DNA of 64,000 bases from Escherichia phage vB_EcoM_G2494, in the sequence record MK327935.1; one strand, given 5' to 3'. The notes under the pieces were generated by a model. The model saw only the letters and a list, made by a program, of their open reading frames with translations, made no database searches and was not told the DNA's origin. Made by a program: the position numbers and the translations under genes. Positions 3,799 through 63,070 of the stretch are shown in pieces. Each line of letters starts with the position of its first letter. The first letter of the stretch is position 1.

Positions 3799-3852
3799 TG
3801 GCTGGCGGGTGTCGATGCCCCGCCGTCATAAATAGTTATATAATGATTTAAT

Positions 3853-4605
3853 ATGAGGTGTTTTATGATTAAAGTGCATGACGATTTCAAAGAACTTTAT
3901 AATGTATGCTCTGAACGTTTTTATTATGATGAAACGAGCGGAACAATTAGACGAAAATATGATTGTAAGAGCAATCATTATAAAGCGGGTGATGTAGTAG
4001 GATATAAAAGAAAACAAAAAAGAACAAATAGTGAAGATGATGTGTTCTATATGTTTACTAAGATTGATGGAGTTTCTTATTCAATTCAACAAATTGTCTT
4101 CTTGCTTACCGAAGGGTATATACCCAATTGCATCGATCATATTAACAGAGACACACTAGATAATCACCGTGAAAATCTTCGTGATGCATCGCGAAGCGGA
4201 AATGCTCGCAATAAATGCAAGGTATATAAAAATGGTTTCGCCTCTTCCGATTACATTGGTGTGTCTAAGCGGGGTTCTGGATTTAGGTGTCGTATTAGAA
4301 TAGACCATGTTATTGCATATGATGAAACGTTCGAAAATGAAACATCTGCCGCATATGCATATAACGTAGAATGTATAAAATTAGGTGTCAGTGAGTATAC
4401 CAACTTTAATAAATTTGAAGACGAAGAATCTGTTAGGAAACTTTACGAAAAAGAGAAAGAAAATAAAGAGTTTCAAGAATATTGGAAGGGAACACATAAA
4501 CAGGGTAAACGATGGGGCGCTAAAGTTAAGAGTGTGCGTTTGGGTACATTCGAAACAAGGGAAGAAGCTAGACTAGCTATAATTCGCTACAAAGAGGGGT
4601 TTTGA
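3853..4605 (+). CDS. free-standing HNH homing endonuclease with AP2-type DNA-binding domains
   Basis: HNH motif [18 protein letters not shown]; AP2-like segments [15 protein letters not shown] and [23 protein letters not shown]; inserted between gp5.1-like and gp5.4. Confidence 0.8.
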
Positions 4606-21507: not shown

Positions 21508-22396
21508 ATGTTTTCACATTTTTACAATTCGTCAATTAGACGGTATATTGTATTGCTGGGTAATTTATTCTCCGGCGTACAAATTAAAAGGGTGCGTAGC
21601 GACGGTGAGCGTTTTATTAAAGTTCCTATCACCTACGCAAAGAAAGAAAAATTCATGATGAGTCTGGACAAATATAACAATATCTCAAGTGAGGAAGACG
21701 TAGCAAAGGTAGAAACTATTTTACCGCGTATGTGTCTTTCTTTGATTGATATGACATACGCCCAGAACTTTAAAACAAATATTGCAAATAAGACAGTACC
21801 AAAATATACGGCTGATGGAATCAGGAGCGTAACACAATATAATCCTGTACCATATAAGTTTACTTTCGAGTTAGGGATTTATACGCGTACAATATAATCC
21901 TGTACCATATAAGTTTACTTTCGAGTTAGGGATTTATACGCGTAACGAAGATGATATGTTTCAGATAATTGAACAGATTCTTCCTTACTTCCAGCCTCAT
22001 TTTAACTGTAAGATTAAAGAACTACACGGTAATGATGTATGGATTGATCGAGATATTCAGGTCACTATTAGTTCTATTACTCCAGATGAACAGGTAGGCG
22101 AAGATAAGTTTTCTCGTCGTCGTCTTGAGTGGACCATTATGTTCGAATTTATCGGCTTTATATATCCTCCAGCTACCGACGTTAAGGGGGAAATTAGAAC
22201 GATTTATCTTGATTTTCATGCTAATTCTCGTGAATTAAATCCTAGCGGTAATTTTGAATCAGTGGATCACGAGGTCGTTAAACGTGACGTCGAGCAAGAA
22301 GATTGGGACGGAACAATCAAAGAATCATATTCTAGTGATATTCCAATACCAGTTGCACCAACTCCACCGGGTCCACGTATTGTAAGAGAATTTTAA
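21508..22396 (+). pseudogene. 15: gene 15 (tail sheath stabiliser/tail completion) split into two ORFs (21508..21897 and 21956..22396) by a frameshifting tandem duplication
   Basis: N-part ends ...ELGIYTRTI*, C-part starts MFQIIEQILPYFQPHF; removing one 55-bp repeat copy restores the continuous T4-like sequence ...GIYTRNEDDMFQIIEQ... Confidence 0.7.
21835..21944 (+). repeat. perfect 55-bp tandem direct duplication inside gene 15
   Basis: caatataatcctgtaccatataagtttactttcgagttagggatttatacgcgta present twice back to back (21835-21889 and 21890-21944). Confidence 0.85.
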
Positions 22397-22409: not shown

Positions 22410-26015
<3,606 letters not shown>

Positions 26016-44860: not shown

Positions 44861-45947
44861 TGTCTCAATAAAACTTTATCAGGATTATGAGGCATTTCTA
44901 AATCATCGCTTTATAGAATTGGGTGCTACCTTTGTTACAATGACTCTGCGTGATTCGATTCGTGGGGTGAACGAAGGATTGTTGCAATTCTATGATAATA
45001 AGGCGATGCATACAAAATTAAATGGACGAGAGATCATTCAGATTTCGCTATCCACTGCTAATACAGATGAAGTGTTTAACCGAATCTATGGGATCTCTCA
45101 TAGTAATGTAACAATTGACCAAAAATCCGACAACATTTTAACATTCCAGTTAAAGAGCTATCACGAAACACTAAACCTTAAATTTTCTCGCTCATTGACA
45201 AATAACGCTGTTAATAACGTAACTAGCATGATTGATGCCATCTATAAGGAAGTTCCTTTATGGAAACCTACTATAAAGGGTGATAACGTTGTTATTCCTC
45301 GTTGTCCGTGGGTTAGTACCATAAATGACTATATGGATTTTGTGAGGGCATACGGGCAAAGCGTAGAAACAGAGTCTTTCGTGTATTGCTGGGAAGATTT
45401 TGATGGTATAACGATCGCTGGACACGATACAATATTAAAAAATGAGCCAATACCAGCTATAATCTGTGAGCCTAGACTCATGGGGCAATTTATTGATATG
45501 TCGCCTAATCTGATGGTTTTTAATTTCGAGTGGCAGACTAAGAGCAATGCTAAAGTTAAAAATTCATTTAGCAATGTGACATACACAACTATTGATTTTG
45601 TTACTAAGCAGTATAATAAAATTATTGTTGGTAATGGAGATAATATTGCACACTTTGCTCATGGTGGCGCTTATGGCGATTTAACTTATAAGAATGCGTT
45701 TTTGGAAGGTTCTAAACTTGCCACAATAGAACAATATGATTCATATGCTACCGCCGTGTGTCACGGTAATTTCTCGTTGCGCCCCGGTATGGTTATTCGA
45801 TTCTTTGATGAGAAGCAACAAGCACGCAATGATTTTATTGTTGACGAAGTGGTGCATGAAATTAGCCGAGAGCAATCATTAACTCACCTGTATATGATCG
45901 GTAACAGCGAAGAATTACAGGAAGTCAAATTTGAAGGTAAGATATAA
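44838..45947 (+). CDS. 27: baseplate hub subunit gp27
   Basis: 369 aa; similar to T4 gp27 (GFPNVSIKL, MTLRDS, NEG.LQFYD, EIIQIS, THLYM). Confidence 0.85.
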   Translation: MQRTGFPNVSIKLYQDYEAFLNHRFIELGATFVTMTLRDSIRGVNEGLLQFYDNKAMHTKLNGREIIQISLSTANTDEVFNRIYGISHSNVTIDQKSDNILTFQLKSYHETLNLKFSRSLTNNAVNNVTSMIDAIYKEVPLWKPTIKGDNVVIPRCPWVSTINDYMDFVRAYGQSVETESFVYCWEDFDGITIAGHDTILKNEPIPAIICEPRLMGQFIDMSPNLMVFNFEWQTKSNAKVKNSFSNVTYTTIDFVTKQYNKIIVGNGDNIAHFAHGGAYGDLTYKNAFLEGSKLATIEQYDSYATAVCHGNFSLRPGMVIRFFDEKQQARNDFIVDEVVHEISREQSLTHLYMIGNSEELQEVKFEGKI

Positions 45948-55105: not shown

Positions 55106-55821
55106 TATAGATCCTTATTTGCTTCAAATACTGCCTTTGCGAATCCTCGCGGGGTAAGTGACCTTATAGTCTTTGTTTTCGTTCCTTTCCCGCCTAGCTT
55201 AGAATGCTGTTTACTGTACCCTTTATTAATCTGCAACGGTTTCTTTTCTGGCATTATAAAGCCTTGTCCGGTCCATAAGCAAGTCTTTTTTGGGTACATA
55301 TCACGGGCGGCAATATACTCAGGAAACGTAGGATGCTTATCATCTTCCGGCAAATAACCGCCATATTCCCACGGATGGAACATATAATCAGGCTTACGCC
55401 ACATGCTAGAGATAACGCTTACAGGATTCTCTATCATGTAGGGAACTCCTAGCCATTCACCCAAATAAGCGGTTATTTTGGCTGCCCTTACATCATGAAC
55501 TTGAATCAATGGTCCTTGTTCTCGTTTCTTTCGTTCAAAGTGCGCAGCGCCACTAACAGCTAAATTGGTGCATGGTGGGAATGCAAAGATAATATCCGGT
55601 TTCCCCCATTCAAGGTCCATTGCTCTTTCTAGCCAGTTAAAATCAATCCATGTGTTTACATAGGTAATGTTTGGATGTTCAAATCTGGTATTATACTTTT
55701 TGTATGTTCCGTGGTCGCCATCGTCAGCATTAAAGCAGATCACCTTATGACCTGCTTTAGCCCATTCTAACCCCATTATCCCCGATCCGTCAAAGTTACA
55801 GAATATTAATTTTTGTTTCAT
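55105..55821 (-). CDS. C5-cytosine methyltransferase-like protein (divergent, short)
   Basis: 238 aa; motif I-like FCNFDGSGIMG, motif IV-like FAFPPCTNLAVSG (PCT instead of PCQ), motif VI-like YMIENPVS, C-terminal RSLTPRGFAKAV; no obvious target recognition domain. Confidence 0.45.
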   Translation of the reverse strand: MKQKLIFCNFDGSGIMGLEWAKAGHKVICFNADDGDHGTYKKYNTRFEHPNITYVNTWIDFNWLERAMDLEWGKPDIIFAFPPCTNLAVSGAAHFERKKREQGPLIQVHDVRAAKITAYLGEWLGVPYMIENPVSVISSMWRKPDYMFHPWEYGGYLPEDDKHPTFPEYIAARDMYPKKTCLWTGQGFIMPEKKPLQINKGYSKQHSKLGGKGTKTKTIRSLTPRGFAKAVFEANKDL

Positions 55822-56063
55822 ATACGCCCCTTTAATCCAACACAGATTTTAGAAGGTTCTTTGCCGTGCCACATTAAGTAAAGTCCGTTAATGCGGCCTT
55901 GTTTTGTATATGATTCTTTTCTGATCTTCTTATAGTGTCGTGCTTCCTCAGCCGATTGTTTAGAATACCAATCATAAAGGAAGAGGCACAAAGGCCACCC
56001 ATTAGCGGCCTTAATGCAGTTATTAAGAAATTCCTTATTGCGTTTAATTAATTTTCTTTTCAC
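55818..56063 (-). CDS. hypothetical early protein
   Basis: 81 aa, overlapping start/stop with neighbours (operon). Confidence 0.4.
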   Translation of the reverse strand: MKRKLIKRNKEFLNNCIKAANGWPLCLFLYDWYSKQSAEEARHYKKIRKESYTKQGRINGLYLMWHGKEPSKICVGLKGRI

Positions 56064-56624: not shown

Positions 56625-56637
56625 CAACTTTTTAAAA

Positions 56638-57111
56638 TTATTTGCACCAAATTCGAATGATTTCGTCTCGTTCAAATTTTTGCCAGATTACTCGGTCGCC
56701 CGCTGCCATAATCCTGACAAATCCAGTTATATTTCCGGTGTACTTGCTTTTAGTTTCTGCATCATATTCAAAGAATGGAGCTTTAAGATCGCTAAACTCA
56801 TCTTTTCCCACAAACTTCATAACATGACGGTGTGCGTAATATTCGCTTCTTAGTGTTGTTGTGATAGTTCCGTCATCATTTGATTTCAGATGCAATTCGG
56901 CATCTTCATAAAGACTTGCATCTCGTTGTTTACTTTCGATACCATCATTATATGTTGATTTGGTTGCACTCCAACATTGATATGTCTTATCTACATTTTC
57001 GATCTTTTCCTGTGTCATGTCAAAAAGCGGCGCAACCTTTTTCTTAGCCGCGTGCGCAACGTTGGTCATAGACAGTGCCGCAACAACCGCAATAGCAATA
57101 ATTTTCTTCAT
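56638..57111 (-). CDS. secreted/periplasmic protein
   Basis: 157 aa; N-terminal signal peptide MKKIIAIAVVAALSMTNVAHA. Confidence 0.55.
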   Translation of the reverse strand: MKKIIAIAVVAALSMTNVAHAAKKKVAPLFDMTQEKIENVDKTYQCWSATKSTYNDGIESKQRDASLYEDAELHLKSNDDGTITTTLRSEYYAHRHVMKFVGKDEFSDLKAPFFEYDAETKSKYTGNITGFVRIMAAGDRVIWQKFERDEIIRIWCK

Positions 57112-58648: not shown

Positions 58649-58927
58649 TTATAAAATAATTTTTTGATATTTTTCTATGATGTTTGTGTAGGTCACATCA
58701 ACCGCGAGCACCGTTGCTTCGAATCCACCGTTTAGCCAATGGCTATGATCGTGATCGTTAAAGAAACCGAGGCCAGTGCGAAGACCTTCTTTATATTCGG
58801 CGCGTACATTCAGTTTGTCGTCGATAAACAGATAAAACCATGAATTTTTACTAGGATTGATGATACAACCTTTCAGATTAGGGAGAATATCACGACTAAG
58901 AATAAACTTATCACCTACTTTGAACAT
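58649..58927 (-). CDS. HxHW-family small early protein (paralog 2)
   Basis: start taken at ATG 58925-58927 (MFKVG; track ORF starts at a GTG at 58942); FYLFIDDKLNV ... HDHSHW ... VLAVDV. Confidence 0.5.
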   Translation of the reverse strand: MFKVGDKFILSRDILPNLKGCIINPSKNSWFYLFIDDKLNVRAEYKEGLRTGLGFFNDHDHSHWLNGGFEATVLAVDVTYTNIIEKYQKIIL

Positions 58928-58931
58928 AATA

Positions 58932-59252
58932 TTAGTCCTCACTTATAAGGTCAAACCAATTGTTTTTCGCATAATGCTTAATGCGTGCTTGATCTGCTTC
59001 CGCTGGTGATAGATTCCATGCGATCACTACAACTTCTGACGCATCGTCATCCGTTTCTGATATCCAATGATTGTGATTCATACAGTTATTTGCTATCGCG
59101 TGAGCAAATGATCTCATTACTGGAGACGTATAATCATAGTAACGGATTTTCAGATTTTCATCAACGTACAAATAGATCGTATAAGGTTTATATTCAGTAA
59201 CCAGTAACAGACAGTTACGCAATTCTGGGAAAATCTTTTTAGTTAATTTCAT
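58932..59252 (-). CDS. HxHW-family small early protein (paralog 3)
   Basis: 106 aa; IYLYVDENLKI ... NHNHW ... VVVIAWNL. Confidence 0.5.
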   Translation of the reverse strand: MKLTKKIFPELRNCLLLVTEYKPYTIYLYVDENLKIRYYDYTSPVMRSFAHAIANNCMNHNHWISETDDDASEVVVIAWNLSPAEADQARIKHYAKNNWFDLISED

Positions 59253-59454
59253 AGTCTATTTCTCCGTAATACACGGTAATCCATTTTTCTTCATACTTTG
59301 TATCTTTCCAACACACAATCCCGTTTACTGTGCAATCTTTGGAATTGACGAATGATTCATATTGTTCTGCGTCTTCCATCATTGCATGAGCGGTCTTTTC
59401 ATCGAATATATCGCAGATCGCTTTATATGCTCAATAATCTTTAAATTTGCTCAT
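59239..59454 (-). pseudogene. tandem paralog of 59457..59666 with in-frame TGA at codon 8
   Basis: MSKFKDY-TGA-AYKAICDIF...AMMEDAEQYESF... parallels MSKFKDYKAYQQILRVY...KMMEDASKCPSF... of upstream copy. Confidence 0.4.
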
Positions 59455-60996: not shown

Positions 60997-61305
60997 CTAC
61001 ATTACGCAAAATGGCGTGTCAATACTTCTTTTTGCTGTTCCGCTAAGATTCTCGATCTCTCCTGGCATAACATCAACCGCCAGAACTTCTACAACATCCT
61101 CTGATCCTAACCAGTGAGTATGACCTTTGTAGAACTTGATATCCCATTTATCGCTATCGCTAGCCCACCACACATCACCGTCTATAAAGTTGATGTAAAG
61201 CACACTACGACACATTGAATTAGTTACTTTCAATACTGCGCCTTTCATCTCTTCCACGGTATGGTCTTCCATTTTGAAGACCTCGCCTACCTTAACTTTT
61301 GCCAT
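60997..61305 (-). CDS. HxHW-family small early protein (paralog 6)
   Basis: start at ATG 61303-61305 (MAKVKVG); LYINFIDGDVWW ... HTHW ... VLAVDV. Confidence 0.5.
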   Translation of the reverse strand: MAKVKVGEVFKMEDHTVEEMKGAVLKVTNSMCRSVLYINFIDGDVWWASDSDKWDIKFYKGHTHWLGSEDVVEVLAVDVMPGEIENLSGTAKRSIDTPFCVM

Positions 61306-61844: not shown

Positions 61845-62156
61845 TTAAAGTTTTTCCATGATAACGGTCATAATTACATCTTCTGCGCGAGCGGTCAGAT
61901 TATCAGCGTCAGCATGTGGGCGGTTGGTTGTTACAGAGATAACACCGTTGCGCACTGGTTTGATATTGATATCAAGATGATCCGCGAAACGTTCGCCAGT
62001 TACAGAATGAATTTTGGTGTTAAATTCTTTTGCCAGTGCCTTGCGAACTTCACGAATCAGGATAGCGTTTTTCAGTTGGTTCTCCGCGCTCATGGTCTTC
62101 TGGGTGTTCATGGTTCCGTCGAAGTCAATCATTGGCAGCGTTACGATGTATTTCAT
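61845..62156 (-). CDS. small early protein, AKEFN-motif family
   Basis: 103 aa; paralog of 58280..58567. Confidence 0.45.
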   Translation of the reverse strand: MKYIVTLPMIDFDGTMNTQKTMSAENQLKNAILIREVRKALAKEFNTKIHSVTGERFADHLDINIKPVRNGVISVTTNRPHADADNLTARAEDVIMTVIMEKL

Positions 62157-62201: not shown

Positions 62202-62230
62202 AGTATAGGGGATACGTGATCCCCTGTCAA
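62202..62230 (-). promoter_or_regulatory. sigma70-type early promoter with palindromic spacer
   Basis: TTGACA-ggggatcacgtatcccc-TATACT on minus strand. Confidence 0.6.
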
Positions 62231-62322
62231 CAACTTTTTTGAATTATTTTTTCATGAGCTTAATGGCTTCTTCCATAGCCAGCACATTTCGATAGTTAGG
62301 GTATCGTGTTAGATCGTCATAC

Positions 62323-62354
62323 ATTCGCTTAAGGGTGGATTCGCTTAAGGGTGG
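62323..62354. repeat. perfect 16-bp tandem duplication (attcgcttaagggtgg x2)
   Basis: copies at 62323-62338 and 62339-62354. Confidence 0.8.
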
Positions 62355-62589
62355 AAACTTCCTCAAACTCTGGGTTTTCTAGATACAGTTGAACAAATTG
62401 TTTCTCTACCATCTCGGCTTTTAGCTTGTCTGCTTGTTCCTGTTCATATGATTTAGTTGGACCCAACACCAACAAAATGATAAAGGTGATCAACGATAGG
62501 AGAACATAACCGATAACGCTACGGTTTAAACGGCTTGCGTACATGCCTACCAGGAAAACAAAAAGGATATAGATAAACAGAAAGAACAT
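62329..62589 (-). CDS. small membrane protein, C-terminus truncated by a 16-bp tandem duplication
   Basis: 86 aa with two hydrophobic segments; removing one repeat copy extends the frame to ~109 aa ending at ~62244. Confidence 0.5.
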   Translation of the reverse strand: MFFLFIYILFVFLVGMYASRLNRSVIGYVLLSLITFIILLVLGPTKSYEQEQADKLKAEMVEKQFVQLYLENPEFEEVSTLKRIHP

Positions 62590-62596
62590 ATAATGG

Positions 62597-63070
62597 TTAC
62601 TCCTTATTTTCGCGCTCGTACTTTTCGAAATAAAATTCTACTGGCTGGTCGTGGATTGACAGTAAGCCAAAGCGTTTAGCCGCTCGCAATCCCATATTGC
62701 GCTGAATGTACTTCTGGAAGTTCTCGCGTATACACTTACGCCAGTATTCTAAGCCCATACAGCTTTTGTAAAGATTGCATTGCACACAAGCCGGATTCAT
62801 ATTATCAAGTATATCGTGCTCCGGTTTATGCATTCCTACAACCTTATACTTCCACGATCCATCATCATTACGGGCAATTCGTCCATTTTCATCATAGACT
62901 ACCTTTGAGCGTCGCAATACTGGTTTGATGTGGTCTGCGTGCCATCGGTCCCCTAGTTCCTCGCCACAATAGGCACAACGCCCACCGTATTTCATTTTCA
63001 GGATCTGGCGTTGCTCTTTCTTTGACAATTTTTTAGGTTTAGGGGCTTTCGCCCCTTCATTATCACACAT
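62597..63070 (-). CDS. HNH endonuclease
   Basis: 157 aa; CAYCGEELGDRWHADHIKP ... NMNPACVQCNLYK HNH/zinc-finger motifs; basic N-terminus. Confidence 0.65.
   Translation of the reverse strand: MCDNEGAKAPKPKKLSKKEQRQILKMKYGGRCAYCGEELGDRWHADHIKPVLRRSKVVYDENGRIARNDDGSWKYKVVGMHKPEHDILDNMNPACVQCNLYKSCMGLEYWRKCIRENFQKYIQRNMGLRAAKRFGLLSIHDQPVEFYFEKYERENKE

Follow-up and report, generated by a model that had tools for sequence, protein, structure and literature searches.

Genes and features at the locus

The window analysed here is a stretch of 64,000 nucleotides from phage vB_EcoM_G2494 (MK327935), an RB49-like Krischvirus (Straboviridae) that infects E. coli and whose genome stems from the study of Korf et al. 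2019 (PMC6563267). Over its full length the window shows an aligned identity of ~95-98% to phage JSE. The locus of interest is encoded on the minus strand. It consists of an HNH endonuclease gene (62597..63070), directly followed by a truncated ORF of 86 aa (62329..62589), an out-of-frame 3' remnant of the same gene (62244..62328), and an early promoter (TTGACA-17-TATACT) with a GGGGAT...ATCCCC stem-loop in its spacer (62202..62230). The latter is the PeSL211/210 cassette (PeSL, promoter-stem-loop), located just downstream of the gene; the ORF210 ortholog (103 aa, 61845..62156) lies directly downstream. The truncated ORF is deposited as QBO63176.1 ('hypothetical protein G2494_00215') and is the ortholog of RB49 ORF211 and JSE EpJSE_00218, both of which have 114 aa. 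RB49, JSE, G37-3 and metagenome contigs have the order lig - HNH - ORF211 - promoter/stem-loop - ORF210 in common with the window. The intergenic PeSL between ORF211 and ORF210 has been described as a combination of a promoter and a strong terminator, and mini-circles of ORF210 with PeSLs as their boundaries have been reported (Arbiol et al. 2010, PMC2839356). By exact look-up, the deposited products matching the window are QBO63176.1 (86 aa), QBO63115.1 (129 aa), QBO63116.1 (146 aa) and QBO63172.1 (102 aa).

The alignment to related phages also brings up features elsewhere in the window. Gene 17 (large terminase, 22904-26015) is split into two overlapping ORFs (583 + 459 aa) and, relative to JSE and AV108, carries an insertion of ~1.3-1.6 kb with a coding region for a TnsA-like / endonuclease I-like domain. 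An error in the record as the cause of the split terminase was ruled out, since JK32, kaaroe, TB34, SAP and phiS have the same 1.8-kb arrangement, gap-free. The comparison identifies the insertion as a natural mobile insertion; Rfam returned no match in the window, and no intron match for the terminase. Opposite window position 45558, JSE has one extra A (~110,921 of NC_012740.1; L007:~921). Its annotation lists two CDSs (201-935 and 910-1311) for the baseplate hub gene 27, which in RB49, AV108 and G37-3 forms a single CDS; the extra A is probably a homopolymer error in the reference. Four segments of the window (3805-4595, 55820-56047, 56632-57102 and 58685-59448) have no counterpart in JSE and represent typical cassette gain or loss, in hyperplastic early regions and beside structural genes.

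The ORF211 family

The intact ORF211 product consists of two transmembrane helices and a helical tail. An AlphaFold (AF2) model of moderate confidence (pLDDT 75) shows a simple helical protein, with helices at residues 2-19, 25-47, 53-76, 78-82, 84-95 and 102-113. Distant homologues have the N-terminal hairpin in common, with an invariant LSLIISPLITFIILLV motif, and in many of them a zinc-ribbon follows the hairpin. The intact RB49-type protein matches phrog_25625 over its entire length (positions 1-114, E = 3.7e-76), a family that PHROGs annotates as 'unknown function', and no Pfam family scored above threshold for the ORF211-type protein. The 86-aa ORF matches the same profile at positions 1-89 of 114 (E = 2.2e-50). 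An intact allele would give a full-length product of 114 aa with the invariant LSLIISPLITFIILLV motif, a description that the 86-aa product does not fit: the gene in G2494 is a damaged allele of the RB49 ORF211 family and not an intact member.

The distribution of the gene is patchy. Of 58 matching Krischvirus records, 21 (~1/3) contain it, and Phi1 and AV108 lack it. ORF211 had already been described as unique to RB49, absent from phi1 and located in a hyperplastic region, as well as homologous to a superintegron ORF of Vibrio fischeri (Arbiol et al. 2010, PMC2839356). Given its occurrence in about a third of the records, its absence from the two phages named above, and its reported uniqueness to RB49 and hyperplastic location, the ORF211 ortholog is an accessory, dispensable early gene. 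Where relatives carry it, the gene is under purifying selection, with a pN/pS of ~0.2 between divergent alleles. Compared with gene-carrying E. coli phages of the RB49/JSE type, the region has an identity of 94.5-96.4%, indels counted.

A private 16-nt tandem duplication in the ORF211 ortholog

At the 3' end of the truncated ORF the 16-nt unit ATTCGCTTAAGGGTGG is found in perfect tandem on the plus strand, at 62323-62338 and again at 62339-62354; on the coding strand the unit reads CCACCCTTAAGCGAAT. One copy, listed here as the second (62339..62354), is surplus compared with every relative examined, although which of the two copies is the new one is not definable. A repeat scan agrees with two copies of a 16-nt unit at 62323-62354, and with one extra matching base 3' of the copies Tandem Repeats Finder reports 62323-62355 (period 16, 2.1 copies, 100% matches). 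Perfect tandem duplications with a period of at least 16 are expected ~3.6e-5 times per 64 kb at the base composition of the window, and the repeat is therefore not a product of chance.

The duplication shifts the frame of the ORF, whose product terminates in ...EEVSTLKRIHP. Deletion of one 16-mer in silico restores the frame to ...STLKRMYDDLTRYPNYRNVLAMEEAIKLMKK, followed by a stop codon at 62244-62246. The cost of the frameshift is thus 26 lost codons and 3 novel ones (IHP); the lost residues (MYDDLTRYPNYRNVLAMEEAIKLMKK) are still encoded in the out-of-frame remnant, together with the ancestral stop, and an ATG of the remnant begins 4 nt past the new TAA. A preliminary description of the window had reported the repeat at these coordinates, the shifted frame with an end in ...STLKRIHP, and the truncation of a small membrane protein. 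Sequence reading, Tandem Repeats Finder and translation support the first two statements, and the third agrees with two strongly hydrophobic N-terminal segments that coincide with the predicted helices 2-19 and 25-47. It had further placed the stop of the single-copy frame at ~62244, which is accurate, after ~24 additional codons, which is too few by two.

The duplication is private to vB_EcoM_G2494. In all 21 phage records that contain the gene, a query of 121 nt across the site spans 105 nt, equivalent to a single 16-mer, and all 22 fetched loci, which represent ~18 distinct genomes or contigs, show an identical set of 31 gap positions against the window, 16 of which correspond to the duplication and 15 to the deletion described below. 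A comparison with orthologs in related phages, as the preliminary description had proposed, accordingly finds a single copy in every one. The products of the relatives have 114 aa throughout, with one exception of 120 aa. The duplication junction, searched as an exact 29-mer, is absent from viral, metagenome and GTDB genome contig collections. The protein cluster of the 86-aa product has one member, from NCBI only, and no independent assembly encodes this product.

A private 15-nt deletion in the same gene

The gene carries a second lesion, an in-frame deletion of 15 nt at about 62487-62496, which was overlooked in the preliminary description. The RB49 counterpart reads TAT-CGTTGATCA-TTAGCC-CGTTGATCA-CC on the coding strand, and the window retains one copy of the 9-nt direct repeat CGTTGATCA (62487..62495, minus strand), which marks the deletion. 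The loss takes the residues IISPL out of transmembrane helix 2; these residues are invariant across the family alignment. Every relative has the 15 nt, and a search of the same three contig collections (viral, metagenome and genome) for the deletion junction found nothing. The event is a textbook case of a deletion between 9-nt direct repeats.

Apart from the two indels, the gene is 1 base away from its nearest relative. Both indels are private and probably disabling, which fits the decay of a dispensable gene. In this lineage the gene has most likely lost its function and is decaying; the 86-aa protein is presumably inactive. We note that both lesions are already public, as the GenBank record annotates their consequences in the form of short CDSs, a point that the preliminary description also missed.

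The proposed course of events can be outlined as follows. An insertion of 16 nt into the ORF211 ortholog, equivalent to a shift of +1, would result in three wrong codons (IHP) followed by a stop. The truncation would remove the last 26 residues, and with them the greater part of the two helices predicted at the end of the soluble tail. The loss of the allele would be tolerated in the lineage since the gene is dispensable.

The two lesions also bear on a reading in which the repeat is functional. Here the ribosome would hop 16 nt between identical codons or shift by +1 at CCU-UAA, or else the repeat would serve as a reversible on/off switch. A perfect tandem repeat of any kind offers matched take-off and landing codons, the new stop directly follows a CCU, and the ATG for the lost 26 residues is only 4 nt away from it. 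Against this, the repeat is found in none of the 21 records and none of the 22 loci, its junction occurs in none of the three contig collections, and no stem-loop is predicted for the single-copy context, folded as DNA (z = +1.03, no inverted repeats). A switch would be expected to vary in copy number, as contingency loci do, but relatives have exactly one copy without variation. The allele moreover contains a disabling deletion in an invariant motif. We regard a functional repeat as extremely improbable, and recoding or bypass was rejected as the main reading for want of conservation.

The 55-nt repeat in gene 15

The window contains a second perfect tandem duplication, likewise noted in the preliminary description. 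It consists of two copies of 55 nt (+1 nt) at 21834..21944 on the plus strand, within gene 15 (21508-22396), and cuts gp15 to 129 of 277 aa. The deposited gp15 is accordingly represented by two CDSs, QBO63115.1 (129 aa) and QBO63116.1 (146 aa). A single copy is present in the 57 related records that align at this site and in the inspected cluster proteins, which have 277-278 aa. The gene 15 product is the tail sheath stabilizer. From T4 genetics it is known that gp15 is essential for a stable tail. G2494 was plaque-purified and has the measured dimensions of a normal myovirus (PMC6563267).

The authors of the study ran SPAdes 3.12.0 at a k-mer of 55, report a single contig per phage, and subsequently re-arranged the contigs of the circularly permuted T4-like genomes (PMC6563267). 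For a T4-like phage assembled with the same version of SPAdes, overlapping contig ends of 55 bp that needed trimming have been reported (PMC8483715), and Unicycler explicitly strips the end overlaps of SPAdes (PMC5481147). The length of 55 nt equals the SPAdes k, and an essential tail gene is split in a viable phage; therefore the gene 15 repeat is interpreted as an assembly artefact, namely an untrimmed k=55 contig-end overlap that was left in place when the contig was re-opened. When an untrimmed contig is re-opened, its end overlap becomes a perfect tandem repeat of 55 nt inside the sequence; this can occur at most once per contig and accounts for gene 15 in full. The sibling G37-3 shows neither a 55-nt repeat nor a terminal overlap in the ~158 of 168 kb scanned, so that this genome was either trimmed or sequenced differently and lends the overlap reading no support.

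The 16-nt repeat resembles such an end overlap in being a perfect tandem duplication at an arbitrary position that is absent from all relatives, as is the gene 15 repeat. It differs in that it does not have the length of the assembly k (55), which the gene 15 repeat has, and in being a second event, in the window interior and ~40 kb away from the junction. Because there is one junction per contig, already accounted for at 21834-21944, a k-mer overlap cannot produce the 16-nt repeat, and an end overlap was ruled out as its source by its length, the single-contig assembly and the distance of ~40 kb. The preliminary description had suggested a shared cause for the two duplications, either a slippage-prone genome or a common artefact. 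This suggestion does not hold, as 55 equals k and 16 does not.

Genuine mutation or error of the record

The sequences of the study are not uniformly clean, since the record of G37-3 (MK327941; L030/L031) contains ~12 private indels of 1-2 nt in conserved context. Among them is a 2-nt deletion that splits baseplate gene 6 (e.g. L030:11592), and others are found in hoc and uvsW (the latter annotated only as 'similar to helicase'); the relatives are intact at these positions. The pattern suggests consensus errors in that record. Across the 64 kb of the G2494 window, a comparison with four relatives in conserved context gives, besides the 55-nt repeat and the two lesions of the ORF211 ortholog, two intergenic single-base indels (15778 and 50207) and one additional base in an A4 run (A5 here) at 61029..61033 on the minus strand. 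The latter changes the C-terminal ~10 residues of an early ORF of 100 aa (deposited as QBO63172.1, 102 aa) and may stem from a true slip or from an error of the consensus.

Against this background, the duplication could exist in the record only, as an artefact of sequencing, consensus calling, polishing or manual editing; the phage itself would then be single-copy and encode an intact 109-aa protein save for the 5-residue deletion. We consider this explanation unlikely, if plausible. In its favour, the same record holds the uncorrected 55-nt artefact that splits gene 15, the sibling record of G37-3 has many small indel errors, and three private indels (+1, +16 and -15) are clustered within 1.5 kb. 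The coverage of G2494 (51.6x) is also the lowest of the four Krischvirus isolates in the table of the study (PMC6563267), and the 86-aa product has no counterpart in an independent assembly of the phage. Several points speak against it. A k-mer overlap gives one junction per contig with a length of k = 55, not 16, and the site, ~40 kb from the gene 15 junction, is interior to the window. RB49, which was sequenced independently, has a similar private perfect tandem duplication nearby. To our knowledge, perfect duplications of 16 nt are not an Illumina error type.

The assembly method provides a further argument. De Bruijn contigs are built only from k-mers that are found in the reads, and such a contig cannot hold a junction that was seen in no read. 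A k of 55 covers the entire 32-nt repeat, so that by the logic of the assembler reads bearing the junction must have existed and formed at least the majority path. The small number of other private indels in the window, and the private perfect duplications that RB49 and G2248 have close to this site, likewise count in favour of a real mutation. The platforms of the study were PacBio or Illumina (PMC6563267), and the use of Illumina/SPAdes for G2494 is deduced solely from the 55-nt repeat. Since de Bruijn contigs hold only k-mers from reads, the 16-nt repeat is most simply a real mutation, and we infer that it is present in the DNA and not merely in the record. The interpretation we favour, and consider probable, is a genuine and evolutionarily very recent tandem duplication in the sequenced stock that truncates a decaying accessory gene.

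Possible origin of the duplication

For a genuine duplication, the source would be a misalignment during replication or repair. The single-copy relatives read T-CCACCCTTAAGCGAA-T at the site, which leaves a flanking identity of 1 nt, short of flanking direct repeats of at least 2 nt. Because the ancestral sequence offers this single nucleotide of identity, classical repeat slippage is not evident. There are no inverted repeats at the 16-nt site, and the single-copy context, folded as DNA, has a minimum free energy of -1 kcal/mol and a z-score of +1.03, no better than shuffled sequence; an origin from a hairpin or quasi-palindrome was ruled out on these grounds. As judged from the flanks, an untemplated misalignment or break-repair would fit better than classical repeat slippage.

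Two further duplications are found in the neighbourhood. RB49 ORF210 contains a private, perfect, in-frame tandem duplication of 18 nt that adds six residues (L014:4075-4110), and G2248 (MK327932) contains a private perfect duplication of 40 nt that comprises part of the ORF211/210 promoter-stem-loop (L016:3845-3925). Like the 16-nt duplication, both are private, perfect and in tandem, with a microhomology of 0-1 nt, and the events are located within ~340 bp. The RB49 event is in frame and the G2248 event intergenic, whereas the event in G2494 alone destroys a reading frame. No other perfect tandem duplication with a period of at least 10 was found in 20 loci of ~6.4 kb each, nor was any other found in ~65 kb of four genomes beyond a shared 12-nt repeat.

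The proximity of these events raises the question of a local hot spot, in which breaks or template switches near the HNH gene and the PeSL211/210 cassette leave untemplated tandem duplications. Possible routes could be the fill-in of staggered nicks made by the neighbouring endonuclease, followed by ligation, or template switching driven by the PeSL. This reading is a sub-mechanism of the origin of the lesion and compatible with a real mutation. The three private perfect duplications (16, 40 and 18 nt) in three genomes within ~340 bp, for which a rough post-hoc estimate gives a chance of 0.01-0.02, the microhomology of 0-1 nt, and the flanking of ORF210 by PeSLs that recombine into mini-circles (PMC2839356) are consistent with it. 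However, the number of events is three, two of the three come from one study, and their clustering was spotted after the fact. Indels are tolerated in such regions and purged from core genes, which alone is enough to concentrate them. Overall, we consider a local hot spot very improbable.

Implications

The significance of these results is chiefly one of quality control. MK327935 holds an untrimmed 55-nt overlap that falsely splits the essential gene 15, and it annotates a damaged accessory allele as an ordinary 86-aa protein. Users of this record in pan-genome, protein-family or therapy-safety work should correct gene 15 and flag the 86-aa ORF. The 16-nt repeat itself is an ordinary, one-off private frameshift allele, separate from the gene 15 artefact, and a small example of disabling indels that accrue in dispensable genes within the hyperplastic regions of T4-type phages. 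A wider question opens only if the local duplication hot spot, so far a weak hint, is borne out; in this case a specific break-and-fill-in repair process may be the source of small duplications in hyperplastic regions.

Comparison with known systems

Gene 60 of phage T4 is known for its translational bypass. The locus in G2494 shares with it a T4-type phage as host of the gene, a non-coding gap within the gene and matched codons that flank this gap. It differs in that the conservation, the stop directly after the take-off codon, the stem-loop and the evidence of read-through that accompany gene 60 have no equivalent at the G2494 site. The similarity is a resemblance only.

A second point of reference is Streisinger-type misalignment mutagenesis, the source of spontaneous tandem-duplication frameshifts in T-even phages. 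The duplication in the ORF211 ortholog is similar to these in being a short perfect repeat whose length is not divisible by 3 and which shifts the frame into a stop close by, in being private to one lineage, and in that its copies are still identical. The classical model, however, requires a pre-existing repeat, and the 16-nt site offers an identity of 1 nt; the 15-nt deletion in the same gene, with its 9-nt repeats, fits this model.
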